This document shows positions 5,896 through 60,422 of a DNA stretch of 64,000 nucleotides, one piece after another; position 1 is the stretch's first letter, and each line of letters opens with the position of its first letter. The stretch comes from a virus (taxonomy: Duplodnaviria; Caudoviricetes). Location: positions 32,001 through 96,000 of the IMG/VR virus record IMGVR_UViG_3300037454_000334, one strand, 5' to 3'. The notes beneath the pieces were generated by a model. The model was not told where the DNA came from. It saw nothing but the letters and a program-made list of their open reading frames with translations, and did not search any database. The position numbers were made by a program, and so were the translations under genes.

Positions 5896-7668
5896 TTACT
5901 TACCGTGCTCCTCGTTCCACTTCTTCTCCAGCTCGCGGTTCTTATCATAAGAGAGAGCGGGGTCATAGACGTACTGGTTCACTACCACTTGTGGAGCTTC
6001 TGCACCGCCGCCGTTATTCTTTGGGGCAGCACCAGCCTGTGCGCCTTGACCGGGGTCGTTCTGGAGCTCAGTGAGCTGGGCGTTCAGGTCTGTAATCTGC
6101 TGGTCGCGCTCGGCGATGGTGTTCTCGGCGGTCGTCAGGGACTCCTTTGCACCGTTCACGTCGGCCTGCAACTGCTCAATCTGAGCCTTCTGTCCCTCGA
6201 TGTCATGCTGCAGGTTGCCGATGGTCTCCTCCTTGGCGGTGATGTCCTGCTCCTGATCGGCGATCTTGGCATTCAGATCCTCGATGGCCTTGCTGTGCTC
6301 AGCGTTCAGGTCGTCGATGGCCTTGCTGTGCTCAGCGTTCAGGTCGTCGATGGCCTTCTGGTGCTCGGCGTTCAGGTTCTCCACTGCCTGTGCGTTCTCA
6401 GTCTTGATGGTCAAGATCTGAGCGTTCAGGTTGTCCTTCTCTGCGGTCAGGCTCTCTACCAATGCCAGTGCATCGGCTTTCTCCTTCTGCAAAGCCTCGA
6501 TGTTTGTCTGAAGAGTGTCGAGCAGTGAGGTGTTCATGTAAACACCGTCTGCATCCACCTTCTCAAACTTGCCGTCAGCAGCTCCTGCCAACTGTGCAAT
6601 AATCTGATAATTCTCTGTCATAATACTGTTATTTGTTGGTGAAATAATGTTGTTCTGTTTTGCGAGATTGACGCCACGGACTTTTGCCTTCTTGGTATCA
6701 ATCTCTGGCAGTTTGCCGAGTTTGCGGCCTGCTGTGCGCTCGATGGGCTTTTCCACGCCGTCTGCCACTGCAAAGGCACGGGATACGAGATCGCCGAGCA
6801 GCATCTGACCGTCGCAGAGGATGCCCATCACATCTTTGGCGTTGAACATCTTGCCTTTCAGGTGCTCGTCCACGTCGGCATTCGGGAAAGCAGCCTTCAT
6901 GTCTGCACGGAACTCCTCGCCGAGTTTCTTCAGCTCCTCGATGAGCAGCGTAGCGTCATCGTCTTCGGCGATATCGCGCATCTCCTTATTCTTATCAACG
7001 CTCTCGGGGTCGTAATACTCGCGGTAGGTCTCGCCCGTGTACTGGTTCTTCTCGCCGTTCTTCTGCGTGAAGAAGCTGGCCATCACGCCGACGCAGCCGA
7101 GCTGATCCATCAGGTTCACAACATACACCTCGTCGCAGAGCGAAGCCTTGTACTCGCCAGCCGATGCGCACAGGCCGTCAATAAGATCATAGACGCGCTG
7201 GCCACGGGCATGGGCATAGTCAATACCCATCTGGAAATCGTTCTTTGCCCAAGCACTACCGCCAGGGGTGTTGGTAATGAAGATGTGTGCGCGGCAATAC
7301 TTATTGTCGGCAGCCTTCATCATCCAGTCGCGGATTTCCTTTGAGCCGTAAGAACAAGCACCACCGTTGCGTGTAATAGGTCCGTCGATTGGCATGATGT
7401 TTACGAATGGTACCTGCAGCTGCTTCAGGTAGTCGATACCAGCCCAAGAGTCGTAGGTCGGCAGCACATCACCGTCCTGTGTGACCTCATACTCACGGAA
7501 GATGTCGGCGCCAGCCATGCTCATCGCCATCGGTCTGCGCTTCTCGCGGTCAATGCCGAGCATCGTATGGTTCTGGCTGTTATACATCACCGTGGGCAGG
7601 ATGCCATGCACGAACGATGGCAGTATCATCCATTCCTTGTTGGTGTAGATTTCTAAAAGTCCGTTCAT
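5896..7668 (-). CDS. S49-family prohead protease fused to a coiled-coil scaffold
   Basis: NTPGGS, GLCASAGEY, LGCVGV motifs; C-terminal coiled coil with tandem IDDLNAEHSKA-like repeats. Confidence 0.88.
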   Translation of the reverse strand: MNGLLEIYTNKEWMILPSFVHGILPTVMYNSQNHTMLGIDREKRRPMAMSMAGADIFREYEVTQDGDVLPTYDSWAGIDYLKQLQVPFVNIMPIDGPITRNGGACSYGSKEIRDWMMKAADNKYCRAHIFITNTPGGSAWAKNDFQMGIDYAHARGQRVYDLIDGLCASAGEYKASLCDEVYVVNLMDQLGCVGVMASFFTQKNGEKNQYTGETYREYYDPESVDKNKEMRDIAEDDDATLLIEELKKLGEEFRADMKAAFPNADVDEHLKGKMFNAKDVMGILCDGQMLLGDLVSRAFAVADGVEKPIERTAGRKLGKLPEIDTKKAKVRGVNLAKQNNIISPTNNSIMTENYQIIAQLAGAADGKFEKVDADGVYMNTSLLDTLQTNIEALQKEKADALALVESLTAEKDNLNAQILTIKTENAQAVENLNAEHQKAIDDLNAEHSKAIDDLNAEHSKAIEDLNAKIADQEQDITAKEETIGNLQHDIEGQKAQIEQLQADVNGAKESLTTAENTIAERDQQITDLNAQLTELQNDPGQGAQAGAAPKNNGGGAEAPQVVVNQYVYDPALSYDKNRELEKKWNEEHGK

Positions 7669-7702: not shown

Positions 7703-7734
7703 CAAAGGTAATGTATGCGCGATTTTAATGGGAC
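7703..7734 (-). promoter_or_regulatory. GTCCC-N19-TACCTTTG promoter (head operon)
   Basis: Motif upstream of the protease gene. Confidence 0.72.
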
Positions 7735-7936
7735 TTGTTTTTCGCCGCGAAAAAGCGTTTTTCGGGCAAAAACGCGATTAAGCGAGTGGATAGGAAAAAA
7801 CATGGCCGACGCTCTCGCGCCAGCCATGCCTCATGTTTTTACCAAATTAATTACTCATTATTTACTGACTTCAAAAATTGTACCGCCCCGCATCCTCGCG
7901 GACTCTACGGGCGGTCCCTGTGTACAATTATAACTA

Positions 7937-8425
7937 TCATGTTCGTCGTGTAATCCTTATCATGTTCGACAGCGACTTCATCGACACCTTCACCGTCTGC
8001 TTCTGCTCGCCTCCGAACTGGTCCTCGACGGAGACAGACGACGTATTGGGAAGGGCATACAGCAGGAACTCGGTACCGGCCACCGTGCGCAGTACGGCGT
8101 GGAAGTCCACACCTTCAAGCAGTCCCTGGGCCTCGCGTACCTCTTCGTAGCCGTACTGCACGGGAATCTGAAGGTCGTGGTTGCGCAGATAGCCTGATGC
8201 CTGTGTCTTCCCCTGCGTCTTCAGCGTCGGCGCATTCATCTGAGCCGTAATACCGGAAGCCGAGTCGTTCACGTCGAGCGTCATCGACGGGGAACCGATG
8301 ACACAGCTGTTCATCGTCACTATCTCCGGAACGTTGAACGGAACAGGCATCGAACAGACCGATGCCTTGACCAGGTCGATGTGCGTCACCTCGCTGAGGA
8401 ATATCTCACTACAATTCTCCATCAT
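7937..8425 (-). CDS. hypothetical (possible structural) protein
   Basis: ORF from MMENCSEIF. Confidence 0.7.
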   Translation of the reverse strand: MMENCSEIFLSEVTHIDLVKASVCSMPVPFNVPEIVTMNSCVIGSPSMTLDVNDSASGITAQMNAPTLKTQGKTQASGYLRNHDLQIPVQYGYEEVREAQGLLEGVDFHAVLRTVAGTEFLLYALPNTSSVSVEDQFGGEQKQTVKVSMKSLSNMIRITRRT

Positions 8426-8609
8426 CACACCTATTATATTATATATATTGCCGCTTATGCCTCCCGAAAAACCACCGAAAAAAGCCTTTGTACAACATGC
8501 GGACACGTTTTGGGGGACATTCGGACGGTTATTTAACTTCTTTTATAGTTCACATTAACTTTCATTCGTACACCTCTTATAAAAGTGCGTAACAAGCCTA
8601 TGACATAGG

Positions 8610-8981
8610 TCAATCGCCGTTATAGGGGTCTATCTCCGACTTGGCTGCTTCATCGGGCTGTCGCGTCTCGATGTCCGAGTTGTTGACGGCCGACGGACTG
8701 TCGCCTTCAGGCAGTTCCTTCTTCACAGGATTGCCGTTGCGGTCATACCCTTGCGTAAACTTACAGGCGAACATCGCACCAGCGGGAACGGCAACCAGAT
8801 ACGGCTCGATATTAAGCCACCAGTCGTGCGGCTGGATGCCTGCCAGGGCCATCGACTCGTGGGCGGCCAGGGCGGTGCCGCTGATCAAGCCGCAGACCCA
8901 CATCATGCGCTTGAAGAACCTAGGCATGGCGTTCTGCCAGCGGCTCTTCAACTCCTTCCAGAAATCCTGCATCGTCTTCAT
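8610..8981 (-). CDS. holin-like 2-TM protein
   Basis: RWQNAMPRFFKR N-terminus, two hydrophobic helices, acidic tail. Confidence 0.62.
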   Translation of the reverse strand: MKTMQDFWKELKSRWQNAMPRFFKRMMWVCGLISGTALAAHESMALAGIQPHDWWLNIEPYLVAVPAGAMFACKFTQGYDRNGNPVKKELPEGDSPSAVNNSDIETRQPDEAAKSEIDPYNGD

Positions 8982-8994
8982 ATTACAAACCAAT

Positions 8995-9318
8995 CTATTG
9001 TTGTCGCTGAACTTTTACGCCTGGATCGGATATCAGTATCAGGTTTGACAAGCCCTTGACCTCTGATAAGAGACCTTGGATATCAGTCCGCACGCCTCCC
9101 ACCTGCTCAATCATCTTCTTTTCGAGCGAGTTCATCTTATCCAATAATCCATCCTGTTTAATTGAGTGAGAGTCGATACGCTTCTGCTGGCTTTCGACAG
9201 TCTTTTCGAGAATGGCCACACGGGTGCGAAGGTTATGAACCCAACCCACCAATCCGACAATCCCAGCGAGTAGCACCGGGAGCAGATAGGGCCAGAGATC
9301 TGTCATTACACTATTCAT
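8995..9318 (-). CDS. single-TM coiled-coil protein (holin/antiholin-like)
   Basis: Start at MNSVMTDLWPYLLPVLLAGIVGLV; TM then coiled coil. Confidence 0.65.
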   Translation of the reverse strand: MNSVMTDLWPYLLPVLLAGIVGLVGWVHNLRTRVAILEKTVESQQKRIDSHSIKQDGLLDKMNSLEKKMIEQVGGVRTDIQGLLSEVKGLSNLILISDPGVKVQRQQ

Positions 9319-9341
9319 TTGCCTGTTTCTGTTTTTTTCTG

Positions 9342-9375
9342 CAAAGATAAGCAGCGTGGCGCTTCGCTTTGGGAT
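9342..9375 (-). promoter_or_regulatory. ATCCC-N21-TATCTTTG promoter variant
   Basis: Same spacing as the GTCCC motif, upstream of the holin-like pair. Confidence 0.6.
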
Positions 9376-9475
9376 ATAAGACAGGCGAAAAGGCATATAT
9401 ACGGGCAAAAGCGGGGCAAGGCGGCCGTTGGACCGCCCCACCCCGCCGACCATTCACGGCGATATGGAATGGAAG

Positions 9476-9748
9476 TCATTTCCTGGCAAAGAGCTTGCCA
9501 AGGAGCCAGAAGGCCGAGGTGGTAAGCACGTTCGCGGCGACGTCGCTGCCGAAGGCCGTGTACCATCGGTCTCGGTCGGCATGCTCCACCAGGCGCTCCA
9601 GGTGCTGCTGGTTCCGCTGAATCGCCCGCAGGATCTCGTCATTGCTCTTGTTCTGCATCGTCATCATCACGAAGAGTCGTTTCTCCTCGTCGCTCATCTT
9701 GTCATAGATGCGCTCAAGGAGCATCCTGCGGGCGACGGCTCTGTCCAT
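9476..9748 (-). CDS. hypothetical protein with hydrophobic C-terminus (Cys-rich operon)
   Basis: 90 aa, TAATG overlap with the upstream gene. Confidence 0.75.
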   Translation of the reverse strand: MDRAVARRMLLERIYDKMSDEEKRLFVMMTMQNKSNDEILRAIQRNQQHLERLVEHADRDRWYTAFGSDVAANVLTTSAFWLLGKLFARK

Positions 9749-10251
9749 TACACACCGAAGTATGAGCGGATATCATACACACCGTCCTTGTCGCGGAGTG
9801 TCTTCATCGCCATCTTGTAGCAGGCAGCGATGATGTCCTTGTCGGTAGGCGTGAGCGGCTTGCCGAGCAGGGCGGCTATCTCCTCTCCGAAGTCGGAGTA
9901 CATCTTGTTCATCTCCACCCACAGGGCGCAGCTGTTGTAGTACGGCATGTCCTCGATGGGCAGGCCGAACGACTGCATCGCGTTCTTCCATGTGTCGCGG
10001 CTCCAAGGGGCCTTTGGATCCATGCCGGCAACAATCTTCTCGGCCTCCTTCGGCGTGAGGTACTGCTTCCACTTGATGGCCTCCAGCTTGTCTATCATCT
10101 CCTCGGCCACGTCGGGCTTCGTCTGGATGAGATAGTCCATCATCTCGTTCATCACACGGCCGAAAGCCATCATGTTCTTTGGGTCACGGCTGTTGGCCAT
10201 GTATTCGTATAGACCTGTATAGCGGTCTCTCAATTCTTGCGGTATAGTCAT
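9748..10251 (-). CDS. hypothetical helical protein (ALWVEMNKMYSD motif)
   Basis: 167-aa ORF with coding-like codon use. Confidence 0.82.
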   Translation of the reverse strand: MTIPQELRDRYTGLYEYMANSRDPKNMMAFGRVMNEMMDYLIQTKPDVAEEMIDKLEAIKWKQYLTPKEAEKIVAGMDPKAPWSRDTWKNAMQSFGLPIEDMPYYNSCALWVEMNKMYSDFGEEIAALLGKPLTPTDKDIIAACYKMAMKTLRDKDGVYDIRSYFGV

Positions 10252-10400
10252 CTTATTTTCTATTTTAATTCGATTTTAAGCCGATTCAAACCGCCTTATT
10301 TCCAGGATTTCTGCGAAAACAAGCGGAAAACGGCGATTTTTATTTCTTATTTTGACGTTTAGGCGCCTGTTTCGGCGGCTTTTCCGTTTTTATTTCGGAT

Positions 10401-10784
10401 TCATGCTTTGACTGCTGAACCTGAACCTGAGCCGCTGGGCACATCGGGCACGGCGTCTGAGGGACTGATCGCGTCGGTGTCGGCTGGGTCTGCTGTTGGA
10501 TAAATCTTTCCATATACCTTTATATATAAGTGGTCGATGATTCCCATGAAGAGGTCGAGCCAGATGGCCGACCAGGCTGAGAGGAAGGATACCGCGAGCG
10601 AGGTGACGACGCCGAGACCGCCGACAAGGCAGTAGCAGAGCACTGCCCAGAAGCTGAAGCACTTCACACAACTGACAATCGGCAGCCGCTGACGGACGAC
10701 CGACGCGACCGCATCTATCAGCCCGAGATGGTTGGCGGCGGTGCAGGCGAACACGATGCACGCGATATCCTGAAGGTTCATCAT
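10401..10784 (-). CDS. DUF1360-like membrane protein
   Basis: SCVKCFSFW motif between TM helices; ATGA overlap with the upstream gene. Confidence 0.65.
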   Translation of the reverse strand: MMNLQDIACIVFACTAANHLGLIDAVASVVRQRLPIVSCVKCFSFWAVLCYCLVGGLGVVTSLAVSFLSAWSAIWLDLFMGIIDHLYIKVYGKIYPTADPADTDAISPSDAVPDVPSGSGSGSAVKA

Positions 10785-11248
10785 GCGCCGGCAGTCACTT
10801 CGATGCTGGTGGTGAGGGCTATCTGGTTGGTGCATGGACGTGTGCCCTGGCAGCAGCCACAGCCGTTGTTGATGTAATACTTGATGGGCTTCGGGCTTGC
10901 CTTCACCTCACCGATGGTCAGCGTGGGCTGGGTGGCCGACGTGCATGGCAGGCAGCACTGGTAGCTGACGTACTCCGTGCGTGGCTCGCAGCTTCCGCAG
11001 GGGCAATAAGTCACGGTGCCCGACACCAGGCACTCCTGACAATACATCGAGTTACCCACGTCGATGGGCTGACCTACGGCGGCTACACTGAGGCTGGCGA
11101 TGACGGGGCGGGCGGGGTCGCTGAGCGCCATCTTGCGGCCTCCGCATGTGTAGTGCGTCAGACCGAGCGTGTACACTCCCGCTGTCGGGGTGGACATCAG
11201 GAAGTCAGGATTGTCCTGTCCGTTCCTGCAGTTACAGTTACAATTCAT
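10781..11248 (-). CDS. Cys-rich beta-strand protein (16 Cys in 155 aa)
   Basis: MNCNCNC start; CPCGSC, CCLPC and CGCC clusters. Confidence 0.82.
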   Translation of the reverse strand: MNCNCNCRNGQDNPDFLMSTPTAGVYTLGLTHYTCGGRKMALSDPARPVIASLSVAAVGQPIDVGNSMYCQECLVSGTVTYCPCGSCEPRTEYVSYQCCLPCTSATQPTLTIGEVKASPKPIKYYINNGCGCCQGTRPCTNQIALTTSIEVTAGA

Positions 11249-11317
11249 AATCGTTTTGTTTTTGTGTTAATTATCTCGGGAGTCTTTGACTGCGCCACTC
11301 CCACCTTGCGCTATGTC

Positions 11318-11635
11318 TTATTCAGCTGCATCGGGCTCCTTCGCGAACTCCTTGGGGAAGAGCTCTGGCTCAACTGTGTTGGGGTCGAAGACGGCTGCCT
11401 CGCTCGACTGGATGGCCTCTATCTTCGTGGCGAGGTCTTTTACCGATCCTTGCATGGCTTCTATCTGACCTTGCATACTGGCCAATGTCTCCATGACCTT
11501 ATCCAGCACCATCATGTTCGAGTATGCGTGCTGCGATGCACAATACTGACGCTGTGCGGGAATGCACTTCAGGCAGTTGCCAGGGCACTTGTACTGCGGC
11601 TGCTGGGCCTGCTGGTTCTGATTTGTCTGTTCCAT
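11318..11635 (-). CDS. hypothetical protein, CxxxCxxC plus coiled coil
   Basis: CPGNCLKC..C then a heptad stretch. Confidence 0.8.
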   Translation of the reverse strand: MEQTNQNQQAQQPQYKCPGNCLKCIPAQRQYCASQHAYSNMMVLDKVMETLASMQGQIEAMQGSVKDLATKIEAIQSSEAAVFDPNTVEPELFPKEFAKEPDAAE

Positions 11636-11710
11636 ATTGCAAATGTTATTTCTGTTTTATTCTCAAGACTTGTCTGTCGTTCAATGACTTAGAGATCGTC
11701 TTTTCAAATC

Positions 11711-11929
11711 TCATTTGAAGTATTCGCAAATCCTGTTCCTTACTATCGGGTTCTTGTCCCAGTTGGCGATGGCCTTTGCCGCCTTCTCCGCCGTGACAGC
11801 GCGACCCTGACGAGCATGATAGCCGATAAAAGCAACGATAGCCATACGCAGATCCTCCACTTCGCGCTCGTCGTAGGCATACACCTCGAAGCTGATGGGG
11901 AACACCTTGATTTCCTTCTTCTCATCCAT
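11711..11929 (-). CDS. hypothetical protein
   Basis: 72-aa ORF in operon. Confidence 0.75.
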   Translation of the reverse strand: MDEKKEIKVFPISFEVYAYDEREVEDLRMAIVAFIGYHARQGRAVTAEKAAKAIANWDKNPIVRNRICEYFK

Positions 11930-11940
11930 TTTGCCGTGAA

Positions 11941-12324
11941 TTAACTGTTACTGACTGGTTGGTTGATGGGCGGCAGGTCCACCGTCGGTGCGGGCGGCTC
12001 CGGCGTCGGGATTACGCCGCGGTTGGCGATGACCTGCTGCACATACTGGTATGCCTGCTGAATGGACGGGCCGTTCTCCTTCAGCCAGTCCATGACGGCG
12101 TTGACTGTCTGGGCGGTGTTCTGCTGCCATGTCAGTGGCACGGGGTCCTGATCGGGCAGGTCTGGCATGTCCGATGCGAAGAAGTCGTACAGCTCCTTCG
12201 CCTCCTTCAGGTCGCCCTTGGCGCAGAAGAGGCACTGCAGCTTCAGGCTGCTCTTGCTCGTTGCTCTTAGTCCCTGGTTCACCATCTGTAACCTCCGTTT
12301 CTTCTTCCCATAGTTCCATATCAT
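11941..12324 (-). CDS. hypothetical protein
   Basis: ORF from MIWNYGKK; Pro-rich tail. Confidence 0.72.
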   Translation of the reverse strand: MIWNYGKKKRRLQMVNQGLRATSKSSLKLQCLFCAKGDLKEAKELYDFFASDMPDLPDQDPVPLTWQQNTAQTVNAVMDWLKENGPSIQQAYQYVQQVIANRGVIPTPEPPAPTVDLPPINQPVSNS

Positions 12325-12414
12325 ATTGCCGTGATTTGATGTTGGAAATGAGGGGCGGCATCCCTCAAGCATCCTTCACTATGCGTTACCGGTTAGCCGC
12401 CACCTCAAATCACT

Positions 12415-12969
12415 TTAGCCGTTGCAGCAGCCGCCGGGGCAAGAACAGGGCTGGGGAGCCGAGTACAGGCTGACGGGTGTCGGGTTCAGCGATGCGCGAC
12501 CAGTCACGAAGTCGGAGTAGGTCTGCGTCATCACGCTGTTCACGGCGCTCAGTTCAGCAGCCTGCTGTGCAGAGAGCGTTCCCTGCTGACTGCCGCTCAC
12601 GGTGTCGTTGACAGTCTGGGTGATGGTCTGGTCGCCAGCGATGCGCTCCTGACGCTCAGCAGCAAACAGGTTGGTCAACTGGTCGAGCTGACGCTGTGTG
12701 GCGCCGTTCTGCAGGGTTGCAATCTCCTTGGCGGCGAGAGCAACCTCCTTGGCCTGGTTGGCCTTGGCATTGCCGTACATACCACCGAAGAGCCATGCGC
12801 CTACGCCAACTGCCGTGCCGACAGTGCCGAGAACAAGTCCTGCAACTCCGATACCACTGGTGTGGTTCTTCTGCTGCATGTAACCGACTTTGTACTGCTC
12901 GTAAGGAGAGAGTCCCTCTTTCGAGTCCATCCCACGGAGCATCATCAAATCATTAGCATCTAAAGCCAT
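12415..12969 (-). CDS. Gly-zipper/TM plus coiled-coil protein with Cys-rich C-terminus
   Basis: GIGVAGLVLGTVGTAVGVGAW; ends PQPCSCPGGCCNG; first gene of the operon. Confidence 0.85.
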   Translation of the reverse strand: MALDANDLMMLRGMDSKEGLSPYEQYKVGYMQQKNHTSGIGVAGLVLGTVGTAVGVGAWLFGGMYGNAKANQAKEVALAAKEIATLQNGATQRQLDQLTNLFAAERQERIAGDQTITQTVNDTVSGSQQGTLSAQQAAELSAVNSVMTQTYSDFVTGRASLNPTPVSLYSAPQPCSCPGGCCNG

Positions 12970-13107
12970 AATCTTAATGTTTTTGTGTTAGTGAAAAATT
13001 GAAGAACGGGACTTTCCCGTCCGCTTGCAAAATTCGGCAATAAACGGCCTCGGACAAAGAAAATCCACACCTCTTTAGGCTCACTTTTCAAGCCTAAGAA
13101 GCGCATA

Positions 13108-13141
13108 GTCCCAAATCATCCGTCCGACGATGATACCTTTG
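13108..13141 (+). promoter_or_regulatory. GTCCC-N21-TACCTTTG promoter driving a short transcript
   Basis: Exact motif on the + strand; no gene before the terminator at 13234. Confidence 0.65.
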
Positions 13142-13233
13142 CCTACGACTCGGGTATACCGGTGCAGACAAACATTGTCAAACCCTTTAAAACATGAGGA
13201 AAGGAACGAATATGATTACATAACAAAATAACA

Positions 13234-13411: not shown

Positions 13412-13651
13412 ATGGACACAATCTTCGACCATATTGAACCTTTTGAGGATTTCTTAACACTCCTCGCACGCAATAAGGTCTCTGTCGGCGACGTGAAGTA
13501 TTTCCCGGCCTACCGTGAATATCTTCACAGACGCTTCGTCGACAAGGACCTGTATTACAACTGCGTCGATGAGCTGTCGGAGAAATACGGCTTGAGACCT
13601 GGCACGTTCAGGACCAAGATCAGGCTGTTCTCGGAAGAGTTCAAAAAATAA
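13412..13651 (+). CDS. small HTH (Mor-like) regulator
   Basis: 79 aa from MDTIFD; ELSEKYGLRPGTFRTKIR HTH-like; divergent from the Cys-rich operon. Confidence 0.6.
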   Translation: MDTIFDHIEPFEDFLTLLARNKVSVGDVKYFPAYREYLHRRFVDKDLYYNCVDELSEKYGLRPGTFRTKIRLFSEEFKK

Positions 13652-13868
13652 GCCCGCTGCTTAACAAAGTTTAGCAGTCAGAGAGATTTCTGCACCGGTT
13701 TTACCCGCTTTTTTGTATAAAAAATTGCTAATTGCTTGCAACTTCCGTTTTATTTGCGTATATTTGCGTCGTGGTTCTCCCTCCAAGGAGGTATTCTCTT
13801 GCGATGGCTGGTAATTTTCAGCCTGATTTTGGAAATAATCCTGAATTTAATACAAAAAACACCGAAAA

Positions 13869-15047
13869 ATGGAATCAAAAATCCGCTACCATTTGTGCTA
13901 TAACTACGGTAAGAAACTCAATGCTGACGGACGCTCTCCGGTGGCCGTCGAGGCACGTCAGGGCACCAAGAGAATATACCTGTCGACACAGGTTATGCTC
14001 TTCCCATATCAATGGAACAACGGGAAGGTCGTCAACCACCCGAATGCGTCTAAGCTGACCGTCTGGCTCTTCAGACGGATGCACGAGATTGAGGAGATCG
14101 AGCTCGACTCACTGCTCAACGACAAACCGATGCTGCTCTCTCAGCTGAAGCAGGCCGTCAGGTCCGGTTCCAAGCCGTCGGCATCCATAGAGGAGTTCGT
14201 GAATGCCGTCATCGAGCCGAGCAACCGCAGCCGCCAGACCAAGGATGCCTATCACACGCTGGCCCGCGAGACCGAGAAATACGACAAGAAGACGAAGATG
14301 AACACCATCGACCACGACTGGATTGAGCGGTGGCGTACCACGATGCTGCAGCAGGGATTGTCGGAGAACACCGTCAAAGGACGTCTGAAGATGCTACACT
14401 GCCTGACGCAGGAGGCCATCAAGCGCGATCTCCTGAGTCAGGACCCCTTCAAATGGATTGTCATTGGCAACATGACGCCGAAGCAGGAGTTCCTGACCAA
14501 GGGCGAGCTCCGCAAGATAGAGCGGGTCCGTCTGACGGGCAAGGAGGCGAAGGTGCGCGACCTGTTCCTGCTCGGGGTATATACAGGCCTCAGATGGAGC
14601 GACCTGACCACGCTTGAGGAAGCCGACATCAGCGGCGGCATCATTCGCAAACGGATGTATAAGACGAAGCGTGACGTCACCATCCCCATCAAGACGCTCT
14701 TCTGGGGCAAGGGCCAGGAAATCGTCGACCGCTACCAGCCGATCACCAGGCTCTGCAAATGCGTAAAATGCAACTCCACCGGCAACCGGATTATTCAGGC
14801 CATCGCTGAACGCATCGGCATCAAACAGCGCGTCCACTTCCACCTCGCCCGCAAGACATGCTCAACAATGCTCAACGCCCTCGGCCTACCGACGAACGAC
14901 ATCACAAGCATCCTTGGCCACGCCAAAATTGAGACCACCCAAAAATACTATATCTTCGGTAAAGAAGAATCGCTCATCAAATCTGCAAAGAAACTATTCA
15001 AACAACAAAAAGAGTCGCCTATCGAGACTGATATCGAACAAGAGTAG
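13869..15047 (+). CDS. int: tyrosine recombinase / integrase
   Basis: YTGLRWSD (R), HFHLARKT (HxxR), LGHAKIETTQKYY (H, Y); Bacteroidetes arm-binding-like N-terminus. Confidence 0.93.
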   Translation: MESKIRYHLCYNYGKKLNADGRSPVAVEARQGTKRIYLSTQVMLFPYQWNNGKVVNHPNASKLTVWLFRRMHEIEEIELDSLLNDKPMLLSQLKQAVRSGSKPSASIEEFVNAVIEPSNRSRQTKDAYHTLARETEKYDKKTKMNTIDHDWIERWRTTMLQQGLSENTVKGRLKMLHCLTQEAIKRDLLSQDPFKWIVIGNMTPKQEFLTKGELRKIERVRLTGKEAKVRDLFLLGVYTGLRWSDLTTLEEADISGGIIRKRMYKTKRDVTIPIKTLFWGKGQEIVDRYQPITRLCKCVKCNSTGNRIIQAIAERIGIKQRVHFHLARKTCSTMLNALGLPTNDITSILGHAKIETTQKYYIFGKEESLIKSAKKLFKQQKESPIETDIEQE

Positions 15048-15587: not shown

Positions 15588-16142
15588 CTACTTCTCTGCA
15601 TTAGATGCCTGTGCAGGCTGAGGAAAAAGTTCCTCGTATGGCTCCCATTCGATAGAATCCTTACGAGCCCATCCGTCAGACAGCGTTTGGTTAATATAGG
15701 CAACAGCCTTGATATAGAAGTCGTCAGCATCCTCCATTGTCTCAAAAGTATGATACACTGGCAAACCATCCTCTGTTTCACCCATCTTGAATGTAACAGG
15801 TAACGTGGCGCCATTCTTTTGTACAGCCAGGTCATAGGCTGATTTGAAGTTAAACTGATTCTCAGTAGAGAGCCATACAGGAATAACCTCTTCAGAACCG
15901 ACAGGCGACCACGTAAATCCTGAAATAATAATCTCATCAGTCTGCGCATTGATGTCACCAAAAATTGCGTCCTTTACCATCTGCAGCGTCAACTGAGAAC
16001 ACTGTGTCTTGGGAATATAGATTTCATACCACTCATACAGGTTCTTTCCTGCAACCTTCTTTAGATCGTAACCGATGACGATGCGCGAATTTTCTTCGCG
16101 AACGAGCGAGAAGTCGCTCTTTTTTCCACTCATTTTGTTCAT
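15588..16142 (-). CDS. DUF4376-like phage protein (tail-fibre associated)
   Basis: VWLSTENQFNFKSAYDLAVQ..GATLPVTFKMG motif. Confidence 0.72.
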   Translation of the reverse strand: MNKMSGKKSDFSLVREENSRIVIGYDLKKVAGKNLYEWYEIYIPKTQCSQLTLQMVKDAIFGDINAQTDEIIISGFTWSPVGSEEVIPVWLSTENQFNFKSAYDLAVQKNGATLPVTFKMGETEDGLPVYHTFETMEDADDFYIKAVAYINQTLSDGWARKDSIEWEPYEELFPQPAQASNAEK

Positions 16143-17409
16143 AATCCTGTTGTTTTAATAAATTAATAAAATATTGATGTCGTTCTGTAATCTTTGTCAT
16201 ATCCTCACTGAACACACCGAGCCGCATAAACTCTGCTCGAAAGAAAAGTTCTCGGCGAAGGCGGAAAGAAGCCGTATGAGAGAATATACCGAGATAGGAG
16301 CTGATAGTACGCAGCATCTTGTCGGCGGTAGTTTTGCCTCCTGCCAGACTGTTTGTTGGACGAGACATTGAAAGCCACTTTGGACGCAGTGACGGATGTG
16401 TCAGATAGAAGATGTTTCTTCTGATGCGCCGCAAAGTGTGATTCGATACATAAGTGCGCCATGGCTTGATAAAAGCACCGAGGAATTCTACACCATGATG
16501 TACCTCGCTGACTTCGAGTTTGCCCATGTGTAGTTCCAAACCAAGTTCCTGAAACAGGAATGATCTGATCCGAGTCACGAGCGACAACAACCACTCCTTG
16601 TTGGCACTGATGACTACCGAATCGTCTACATAACGTCCGTAGTTCTTGCATTTCAGTACTCGCTTCATAAACTGGTCGAAGATATTGAGATAGACGTTCG
16701 AGAAAAGCTGTGAGGTCAGATTGCCAATTGGAAGCCCGAGCCCGTCCTCTGTCTTCAGCAGGCTCTTGGCAGGATCTAGATCTACCCATCCCTCCAGCGA
16801 ACCGACAATAACACAGTTCTCCTTTGGATTCAACAGTGCAATCTCCGCTGTGAGCCAACATAAAAAGTCGATGTCTAGTCTGTCTGACCATCTCTCGATA
16901 GAGTGTCTGCATATACGATGCATAGCCATCTTCCTGAGCGAAGCGGTTGCTATCTCCAACAATTTTTTCCTGACGATGTGCATAAAGTAACCTCGGATAT
17001 CCAGGTGCATCGCATAACAAGGACACTGCCAGTTTCTCGACTCGCGGCGCAACATATCCGTTACCCGATTTATACCATAATGAGTACCGCGTCCAGGCAC
17101 ACAACTGTAGGAGTCCTGAATAAATGTACGCTCGTAGAGCTCGTGCGTGTAGTTGTAATAAAGGTGATGAACGATGCGGTCGCGAAACATAGCAGCAAAT
17201 ATTTCGCGCTTCTTCGGATATTCCACAATAAAGCACTTCGATGGCTGAGCCACATAACGACGACTGATGAGGTCGTCGCATAATTGCTCCATGTTCGTCT
17301 TTAAGTCGGACTCCCACTTCACGACATACGACATCATACCCTTGCCACGACGTGCATCGTAGTATGCAGCAAACAAATCGCGCAGAAGTTGTTGCCTTGT
17401 AAGCGTCAT
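16033..17409 (-). CDS. DGR reverse transcriptase
   Basis: FRDRIVHH, LDIRGYF, GLPIGNLTSQ, YGRYVDD, FLG motifs; adjacent TR. Confidence 0.96.
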   Translation of the reverse strand: MTLTRQQLLRDLFAAYYDARRGKGMMSYVVKWESDLKTNMEQLCDDLISRRYVAQPSKCFIVEYPKKREIFAAMFRDRIVHHLYYNYTHELYERTFIQDSYSCVPGRGTHYGINRVTDMLRRESRNWQCPCYAMHLDIRGYFMHIVRKKLLEIATASLRKMAMHRICRHSIERWSDRLDIDFLCWLTAEIALLNPKENCVIVGSLEGWVDLDPAKSLLKTEDGLGLPIGNLTSQLFSNVYLNIFDQFMKRVLKCKNYGRYVDDSVVISANKEWLLSLVTRIRSFLFQELGLELHMGKLEVSEVHHGVEFLGAFIKPWRTYVSNHTLRRIRRNIFYLTHPSLRPKWLSMSRPTNSLAGGKTTADKMLRTISSYLGIFSHTASFRLRRELFFRAEFMRLGVFSEDMTKITERHQYFINLLKQQDYEQNEWKKERLLARSRRKFAHRHRLRSKEGCRKEPV

Positions 17410-25846: not shown

Positions 25847-25880
25847 CAAATTTATATAAGGTTTGAAATAAAAGTGGGAC
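25847..25880 (-). promoter_or_regulatory. GTCCC-N21-TAAATTTG promoter
   Basis: Motif match. Confidence 0.75.
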
Positions 25881-35937: not shown

Positions 35938-35971
35938 CAAAGTTAAATTCGGCTTAAACCAAAAGTGGGAC
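35938..35971 (-). promoter_or_regulatory. GTCCC-N21-TAACTTTG promoter
   Basis: Motif match. Confidence 0.75.
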
Positions 35972-59678: not shown

Positions 59679-60422
59679 TTAAACGTTTCTATACGCGAAC
59701 TTGGCATCGAATGAGGGACATTCTTTTACCCACTCATCAGGCGAGATAACCCCGTCGTGGTTCTTGTCGGGAGAAAAGTCACGGTGCCCCTGAATCTTCG
59801 CCTTCGGATAGAGCTTCCGCAAATCCATCAGCAGCGACAGCAGACTGGCCTTCTGAGCATCCGTGCGAGTATCTTTCGCTTTCAGCATGGAATAAGGCAC
59901 ACTAGGCCGGCTTTCCAGACCACCGACATACGAGATGCCGATACTGTTCGAGTTATACCCACTGACATGCGCACCGCTGATGTCCACGTCGCGCCCGATA
60001 TTCACCGTGCCATCACGATAGATGATATAGTGATAACCACAATCGCTCCAACCCTGCGCCTTGTGCTGCCTGCGGATGTCCTCCACCGTCATGTCGCGCC
60101 CCTCCTGAGTAGCCGTACAATGGATGACGATATAGTCAATCCTGCGCTTGCTTCGCTTCAGGCGGATGGTCTTCCCGCCGTAAGAACTGACCACCGAGTC
60201 CAACGACACAGAAGTGCCTGACCCCTTTGTGTCAATTCCCATCGCCAGCAGCGTCTTCGGCCCCGCGATACCATCAGCCGTCAGGCCATGCTCCTTTTGG
60301 TAGTTCTTCACCGCCTCAGTCGTCAGCTTACCCCATATACCATCAGGATAGCACCCGACCGCCTTCTGAATCAGGGTCACTACCGCCCCCTTCGATCCTT
60401 CCTTATAAGTTATCACTCCCAT
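59679..60422 (-). CDS. endolysin: peptidoglycan-binding domain plus N-acetylmuramoyl-L-alanine amidase
   Basis: DGIWGKLT..AVKNYQ..HGL.ADGIAG; IVIHCTAT, GYHY, GAHV, GHRD, KECPSFD. Confidence 0.94.
   Translation of the reverse strand: MGVITYKEGSKGAVVTLIQKAVGCYPDGIWGKLTTEAVKNYQKEHGLTADGIAGPKTLLAMGIDTKGSGTSVSLDSVVSSYGGKTIRLKRSKRRIDYIVIHCTATQEGRDMTVEDIRRQHKAQGWSDCGYHYIIYRDGTVNIGRDVDISGAHVSGYNSNSIGISYVGGLESRPSVPYSMLKAKDTRTDAQKASLLSLLMDLRKLYPKAKIQGHRDFSPDKNHDGVISPDEWVKECPSFDAKFAYRNV

Follow-up and report, generated by a model that had tools for sequence, protein, structure and literature searches.

A syntenic, cysteine-rich nine-gene module in phages of Prevotellaceae and Bacteroides

We analysed a 64,000-nucleotide stretch of Caudoviricetes DNA (the window; bases 32001-96000 of the 106.9-kb IMG/VR virus record IMGVR_UViG_3300037454_000334, CheckV completeness ~65%) for the nature of a minus-strand operon that runs from position 12969 to position 9476 and consists of nine genes, named A to I (Table 1). 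The nine genes fit a self-contained accessory module of Prevotellaceae and Bacteroides phages, and by the searches described below the module appears to match no known phage function. Gene content, conservation of gene order and of cysteines, promoter type and the predicted folds of single proteins are the direct results of the analysis. As a tentative explanation of them, we propose that its products form a multiprotein assembly, anchored in the membrane, in which clusters of cysteines join the subunits.

Gene content and conservation of the module

An earlier reading of this DNA made from its letters alone (the sequence-only reading) had described an operon of eight genes. Every open reading frame (ORF) it described is present on the minus strand, and the count rises to nine with G, which overlaps the 3′ end of the membrane gene F in another frame and covers its last 113 nt. 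The N-terminal motif, CPxC and Lys-rich tail of G are kept in 8/8 close loci compared although the length of the overlap differs between loci, which argues that G is a real gene; it was not found in the distant locus L011. Alignment places the true start of B at M17, and the true start of F at M18 produces an ATGA overlap with the stop codon of gene E (product E155). The start of I overlaps the stop of H as TAATG, and the overlapping pairs E/F, F/G and H/I would fit products that are made together. Hydropathy indicates membrane or amphipathic segments in three products, A, F and I. In A, the transmembrane segment is followed by a coiled-coil-like helical region and a C-terminal PCxCP..GCGC cluster, the protein ending CSCPGGCCNG.

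A pattern scan with E155 recovered nine IMG/VR loci in which this protein is 64-90% identical, and wherever a related locus has the length to reveal it, the order A-B-C-D-E-F-(G)-H-I is present. When all window proteins were compared with the loci by tblastn, I had no match in L004, L005 and L009, C and D had none in L003, and E155 and H were the best conserved members of the module. Three short contigs (L012, L013 and L014) hold partial stretches of the same gene order, two Prevotellaceae metagenome-assembled genomes (MAGs) also keep it, and in L016 and L017 the module is flanked by tail-fibre-like genes on one side and by convergent head genes on the other. In L011, a contig of 72 kb and low GC, an HNH/NUMOD homing endonuclease gene (L011 6373-7158) separates the A and B homologues, and the remaining module (B to F, H and I) is intact. 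Flanking genes vary between loci and lineages, and the block therefore seems to move as a unit.

Cultured phages gave no match to the region by blastn and none to E155 by tblastn. A homologous module in the cultured Bacteroides phage BS162P1 (OP172706.1; host B. salyersiae) was reached only via H and a family hidden Markov model (HMM); it comprises A-F and H in order, all annotated hypothetical, an assignment that HMMs built from the alignments confirmed. Identity of E155 drops to ~27% across its relatives, of which a profile search of 1.84 billion representatives returned just 49, nearly all of ~150-175 aa; we counted 78 homologues of E155, 643 of F and 740 of H. Every relative of E155 is viral or comes from a Prevotellaceae MAG or the Bacteroides phage; none belongs to sporulating Bacillota. 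Judged by gene order in the IMG/VR loci, the MAGs and BS162P1, the genes are conserved together, as the sequence-only reading presupposed, and the unit is conserved from Prevotellaceae phages to Bacteroides phages.

Scans of the module proteins against Pfam, PHROGs, NCBIfam and PADLOC gave one significant result, DUF7841 (PF25223) in H, at 40.2 bits (cut-off 25.2; E 4.7e-10), which a six-frame search also matched. Profile searches of the PDB with A, B, C, D, E155, H and I returned nothing significant. Residues 59-165 of H align with gp15 of the crAss-like phage cr4_1 (hhalign probability 97.5%), and the model of H (H167) is all-alpha with a predicted local distance difference test (pLDDT) score of 88.4; against the PDB, Foldseek found nothing for it and a Foldseek-independent search found just a helical hairpin (Z 5.6). 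The cr4_1 gene (L026 5019-5645), itself a strong member of DUF7841 at 146 bits, carries the annotation 'RNA polymerase sigma factor/ubiquitin-like protein' and comes just after genes annotated endolysin and holin. DUF7841 occurs without A-F in crAss-like phages and, in a different context, in the Bacteroidales genome L023. A literature search on DUF7841, BS162P1 and DUF3794 combined with phage found no paper.

Two family assignments were rejected. The sequence-only reading had likened the membrane protein F to DUF1360 (PF07098) and cast it as a redox partner of the cysteine-rich proteins; just 1/11 family members matches F, at E 1.2, no Pfam domain of any kind is precomputed for the 120 F homologues listed (of 643), and the redox role is unsupported. 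A weak likeness of I to sigma region-4 proteins (E 0.0076) likewise received no support from the PDB profile search.

Conserved cysteines and the predicted fold of E155

With 10.3% cysteine against a mean of 2.3% over 141 ORFs, E155 is the most cysteine-rich ORF of the 107-kb record. Cysteine clusters are conserved in five module proteins, A, D, E155, F and G, so that the conservation of these residues on which the sequence-only reading relied is borne out by the alignments. Across 91 relatives of E155 the cysteine fraction is >=0.9 at C35, C84, C87, C132 and C133 and 0.89 at C5; these are the six near-invariant positions of the 16, and the family median is 14 cysteines per protein. Four C-terminal cysteines of A are conserved, three of them column-invariant, in a 9-sequence alignment that includes L011, and BS162P1 has the same cluster. 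In D, C17, C21, C24 and C32 are invariant in 9 sequences; F has an invariant CxKC..FW at the start of its second hydrophobic segment, and G keeps CPxC. C70 and C99 of E155 co-occur (phi 0.82), a correlation that we set aside as evidence on chemistry because it cannot separate a disulphide from metal binding or shared ancestry.

Modelled with 30 relatives, E155 is an all-beta protein of 11 strands (pLDDT 90.4, predicted template-modelling score (pTM) 0.83) in which disorder (pLDDT <50) is confined to residues 1-5, where the CxCxC tail begins. Comparison of this model with the PDB gave a best E of 0.056 and template-modelling (TM) scores <0.31 by Foldseek, and best Z values of 5.2 and 5.1, both at background level, in two Foldseek-independent searches; among the BFVD viral models there was no match. 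Neither the E155 nor the H167 model matches a head or tail protein in the PDB, nor does E155 match one in BFVD, in line with the earlier expectation that the folds would not be ordinary head-tail ones.

A shape search of the ESM Atlas with E155 returned its own family and then, as the only named neighbours, three clusters of the SPOCS superfamily: SipL/SPOCS (TM 0.63, 113 residues, root-mean-square deviation (rmsd) 2.2 Å), LysM+SipL (TM 0.59, 105 residues, rmsd 2.3 Å) and CotE (TM 0.57, 105 residues, rmsd 2.5 Å). These matches span residues 22-155. In a 2026 preprint, the cysteine-rich SPOCS proteins CsxA (24-25 Cys) and CsxC (14 Cys) are described as the trimeric units of crystalline, disulphide-stabilised layers of Clostridium spores and are reported to self-assemble into such lattices, with CotE and SipL as cysteine-poor organisers (10.64898/2026.09.03.749163). 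Feature searches of the protein atlas with E155 and A gave unnamed viral clusters plus a noise-level CryBP1 row at 0.81. A 3153-aa cadherin-repeat protein that matches the E155 profile in 10 weak stretches was dismissed as a compositional or generic beta-sandwich similarity.

Promoters and genomic setting

The operon promoter appears to be of the host type, with -33 and -7 elements; its -7 box and spacing are conserved in an alignment of the upstream regions of four relatives, and no GTCCCA element stands at its -33 position. That element belongs to a phage-specific motif, GTCCC(A)-N17-21-TAnnTTTG, with 11 sites in the window, between 3340 and 62529, where 0.1 would be expected. Ten of the 11 GTCCCA sites are on the minus strand; the genes they precede include the head protease/scaffold gene (site at 7703-7734), tail-fibre genes and other large genes (further sites at 25847-25880 and 35938-35971); in relatives the motif precedes the head protease homologue and never A. 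That GTCCCA replaces the TTTG found at -33 in host promoters suggests that the phage encodes a specificity factor. Because it has its own host-type promoter and a terminator-like end and is without the GTCCCA motif, the operon looks like a separately controlled, host-polymerase-dependent unit outside the virion gene set. The hairpin in its leader, seen by eye at the same position in the aligned leaders of L007 and L008, is a possible attenuator, and the transcription unit probably runs on through J, K and L to the hairpin at 7775-7755.

The sequence-only reading had placed a divergent helix-turn-helix (HTH) gene beside the operon. Its divergent orientation is peculiar to this genome: seven related loci have an HTH-like gene upstream of the operon and co-oriented with it, in L006 with the same GTCCCA promoter type. 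Its HTH and Mor matches are sub-threshold. A perfect 11-nt inverted repeat (ACCGGTGCAGA) at 13158-13168 and 13689-13699 flanks the gene, beside the integrase, where ~0.1 such 11-nt pairs would be expected by chance in 950 bp. We considered an invertible switch, which seems the less likely account: relatives are without the flanking repeats, the promoter into the gene lies outside them, and the difference in orientation is better read as an evolutionary rearrangement.

Table 1 Features of the module and of its surroundings in the window
Feature	Position	Strand	Description
Terminator-like hairpin	7755-7775	-	Ends the unit after J, K and L; just before the phage-specific promoter 7703-7734
L	7937-8506	-	Lineage-specific; present in L002, L006 and L008
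K	8610-8993	-	Lineage-specific; only in L006/L010
J	8995-9453	-	Transmembrane segment plus coiled coil; lineage-specific, only in L006/L010
I	9476-9748	-	90 aa; helical N-terminal part, hydrophobic/amphipathic C-terminal segment
H (H167)	9748-10251	-	167 aa; all-alpha in model, C-terminal half is Pfam DUF7841
G	10340-10513	-	57 aa; M.RFIQQ..P..R..CPxC (CPMCP here), Lys-rich basic tail
F	10401-10784	-	127 aa from M18; three hydrophobic segments, acidic C-terminal tail
E (E155)	10781-11248	-	155 aa, 16 Cys, starts MNCNCNC; all-beta in model, N-terminal CxCxC tail
D	11318-11635	-	105 aa; Q-rich N-terminus, CPGNCLKC..YC (Cx3Cx2C..C), then coiled-coil-like helix
C	11711-11929	-	72 aa; small, soluble, without conserved Cys
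B	11941-12324	-	127 aa from M17; basic N-terminus, conserved DLPDxDPVP, C-terminal LPPIN
A	12415-12969	-	184 aa; N-terminal conserved segment SPYEQ, Gly-zipper transmembrane segment at residues 40-58
Stem-loop plus T-run	13004-13022	-	Terminator-like match; between the promoter and the A start codon
Operon promoter	13028-13058	-	Predicted from sequence: -33 TTTG (13055-13058), 19-nt spacer, -7-like GAATTTTG (13028-13035)
HTH-like gene	13412-13651	+	79 aa from ATG; GTCCCA..TAnnTTTG promoter 13108-13141, the sole plus-strand site

Elsewhere the window encodes a tyrosine integrase of the Bacteroidota type (13869-15047), a 2099-aa protein and collagen-like tail fibres. At 15588-17409 it has a diversity-generating retroelement, in which a reverse transcriptase (PHROG 1.2e-84) adjoins a DUF4376 fibre-like gene. 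The host family is probably Prevotellaceae, to judge from one H homologue named from a Prevotella MAG and from 2 rumen Prevotellaceae MAGs with E155 relatives at 66-69% identity. A 590-aa protein (5896-7668) that is S49/ClpP-like in its N-terminal part and forms a long coiled coil in its C-terminal part is probably the head protease fused to the scaffold; its homologue in L016 alone has a weak precomputed Peptidase_S49 match. The sole muralytic gene found is an Amidase_2 endolysin at 59679-60422, 47 kb from the operon, which has an apparent N-terminal peptidoglycan-binding part and a ParA-like gene and an HTH gene as neighbours.

Competing explanations and nearest known systems

In the proposed assembly, host RNA polymerase would transcribe the operon from its own -33/-7 promoter, separately from the virion genes. 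The inner membrane would contain A with its Gly-zipper transmembrane segment and coiled coil, F with its three hydrophobic segments and, perhaps, I with its amphipathic tail. On this platform E155, as a SPOCS-shaped beta protein, would oligomerise. Its flexible N-terminal CxCxC tail and surface cysteines may lock it to further copies or to partner proteins, whether by disulphides or by metal ions that they share, and D with its four cysteines and the G/F pair (CPxC and CxxC) could provide additional cysteine-based joints. Membrane topology, oligomerisation, the chemistry of the cysteines (disulphide or metal) and any role, whether as a protective layer, an assembly platform or a means of phage exclusion, are what we infer here. 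A cysteine-joined assembly is the best single model, though a tentative one, because of the terminal cysteine runs and the SPOCS-like shape of E155. Its more specific form, in which SPOCS-like E155 would polymerise on the phage-made membrane platform into a crosslinked protein layer, either within the infected or lysogenic cell or on its envelope, we consider unlikely.

Several findings weigh against the proposed assembly. The link to SPOCS proteins comes from one search with predicted models on both sides, no solved SPOCS structure is among the PDB matches of E155, and a TM of ~0.6 on a beta sandwich is suggestive only; the best PDB matches are small heat-shock alpha-crystallin and CS domains (Z ~5), so the shape is not unique. 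E155 has no Pfam match to SPOCS (PF12673, SipL/DUF3794; PF10628, CotE) at E<=0.1, none of 21 SPOCS family members matched it at E<=10, a six-frame search of the phage record with PF12673 found nothing at E<=10, and no sequence tie connects E155 to the Ena or CotY/ExsY families. The sequence-only reading is partly supported: its spore-coat analogy gained suggestive support from the predicted shape of E155, which lies nearest to the SipL/SPOCS and CotE models, but none from sequence, and the sheath, matrix or fibre that it envisaged is unsupported. Conservation is also imperfect: the D motif is missing in the L012 homologue, BS162P1 and certain distant members lack the CxCxC at the E155 N-terminus, L013 lacks F and L014 lacks A. 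Furthermore, a signal peptide is absent from B, C, D, E, G and H. In the reducing cytoplasm of a strict anaerobe, clusters of cysteines are more usually ligands of Zn or Fe-S than partners in disulphides, and the lack of signal peptides makes cytoplasmic metal binding at least as plausible as disulphide formation. The positive-inside rule makes it more likely that the A cluster is periplasmic, in which case it could not meet E155.

In a rival reading the products are cytoplasmic and membrane metal-binding proteins (Zn or Fe-S) that act as early or lysogen regulators or host-takeover factors and build no large structure. Ligands would be supplied by Cx3Cx2C..C in D, by a C84/C87 knuckle together with C35 and C132/C133 in E155, and by CPxC of G with CxxC of F. 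In its favour are the lack of signal peptides on the soluble cysteine-rich proteins, the anaerobic (Prevotellaceae) host, four invariant cysteines in D at a spacing typical of metal sites, near-invariant cysteines within the folded part of E155, a promoter of the host rather than the virion type and a Lys-rich tail on G of the kind that binds nucleic acids. On the other side, the family scans detected a DNA-binding or enzyme domain in 0/9 proteins, and structural metal sites do not usually take the form of disordered terminal cysteine runs such as those at the E155 N-terminus and the A C-terminus. A regulator needs fewer parts than nine co-conserved genes, three of them for membrane or membrane-associated products, and E155 and H are the best conserved, as expected of proteins with many contacts. 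Metal-binding regulators are a possible explanation, but a doubtful one.

The membrane proteins could instead point to envelope machinery, either for lysis control (holin, antiholin or spanin-like) or for superinfection exclusion, with F as a holin-like protein of three transmembrane segments and A and J as inner-membrane proteins with periplasmic coiled coils and cysteines, like the i-spanin Rz. A and J indeed have an N-terminal transmembrane segment and then a coiled coil, J has a sub-threshold Rz-like PHROG match (E 0.0027), and the tail that follows the three hydrophobic segments of F is charged. No small membrane-protein gene was found next to the endolysin, leaving the holin without assignment, and the DUF7841 gene of cr4_1 has lysis-annotated genes before it. 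We nevertheless judge this improbable: the endolysin is distant, no lipobox lipoprotein of the o-spanin type was seen on reading the module sequences, none of the PHROG lysis families is significant, and lysis genes are normally late, yet the operon lacks a phage-specific promoter. Five conserved soluble proteins, E155 and H best conserved among them, would also go unexplained. Another reading, to which we give little credence, makes the soluble products, E155 foremost, accessory virion parts (capsid decoration or cement, or ejection proteins) whose cysteines would crosslink the released particle. In this lineage the head protease/scaffold and capsid genes follow directly downstream of the module, in L016/L017 it has tail-fibre-like and head genes on its two sides, in L011 it is beside the tape-measure gene, and E155 is strongly conserved. 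However, the unit has its own promoter and terminator and no GTCCCA virion-type promoter, E155 resembles no structural protein in BFVD or the PDB, the neighbours of the module are small non-structural genes in BS162P1, replication genes precede it in L011, and membrane proteins are unexpected in a tailed virion.

Whichever explanation holds, the module is a widespread, strictly syntenic set in rumen and human-gut Bacteroidota phages whose sole annotation is one DUF, and two of its proteins (E155 and H167) have confident models without a solved-structure match, that is, new folds. If the spore-coat-like reading were true, cysteine-crosslinked self-assembly would reach from Bacillota spores to phages of Gram-negative anaerobes, and the cysteine-lattice principle of Clostridial spore envelopes would also occur in viruses, as a shield, a compartment or an assembly platform. 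Even if that reading is wrong, the operon would define a functional module that is new, is regulated separately and belongs to an abundant group of phages. As BS162P1 and its host Bacteroides salyersiae are in culture, the module is open to bench work.

Among known systems, the crAss-like DUF7841 proteins (cr4_1 gp15) share a domain with H and likewise come from Bacteroidota phages, whereas H has an extra N-terminal helical part. The lysis set of phage lambda consists of the class I holin S, the i-spanin Rz and the o-spanin Rz1. F resembles S in its three hydrophobic segments and charged tail, and A resembles Rz in its N-terminal transmembrane segment, coiled coil and cysteines that could link chains; unlike the lambda cassette, the module is not beside the endolysin, shows no lipoprotein partner or virion-type promoter and includes five additional conserved soluble proteins. 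The alpha-crystallin and CS domains that are the best solved-structure matches of E155 (Z 5.0-5.2, 82-90 residues, rmsd 3.2-4.4 Å) are both oligomerising beta sandwiches, but the Z values are at background level, about half of E155 is aligned and there is no sequence relation.

The spore appendage and exosporium proteins Ena (DUF3992) and ExsY/CotY carry terminal cysteine-rich connectors on a compact beta domain and form covalent crosslinks between subunits; E155 shares with them the layout of terminal cysteines and a predicted beta domain, and the idea of crosslinking. It has no Pfam match to these families, and none of them is among the listed PDB fold matches, which does not exclude the Ena family. 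The cysteine-rich SPOCS/DUF3794 proteins of the spore envelope (Clostridium CsxA, CsxC and CdeC; the cysteine-poor CotE, SipL and SpoVID) differ from E155 in that there is no sequence similarity, that E155 is one domain of 155 aa from phages of non-sporulating, Gram-negative Prevotellaceae and Bacteroides, and that its operon includes membrane proteins without a spore counterpart. Like them, E155 is small and, in its model, beta-rich, with its 16 cysteines, and like spore-coat proteins, which are made in the mother cell without a signal peptide, it has none. In CsxA and CsxC, flexible cysteine-bearing regions are proposed to crosslink the lattices (10.64898/2026.09.03.749163), and E155 is likewise predicted to have flexible cysteine-bearing ends.

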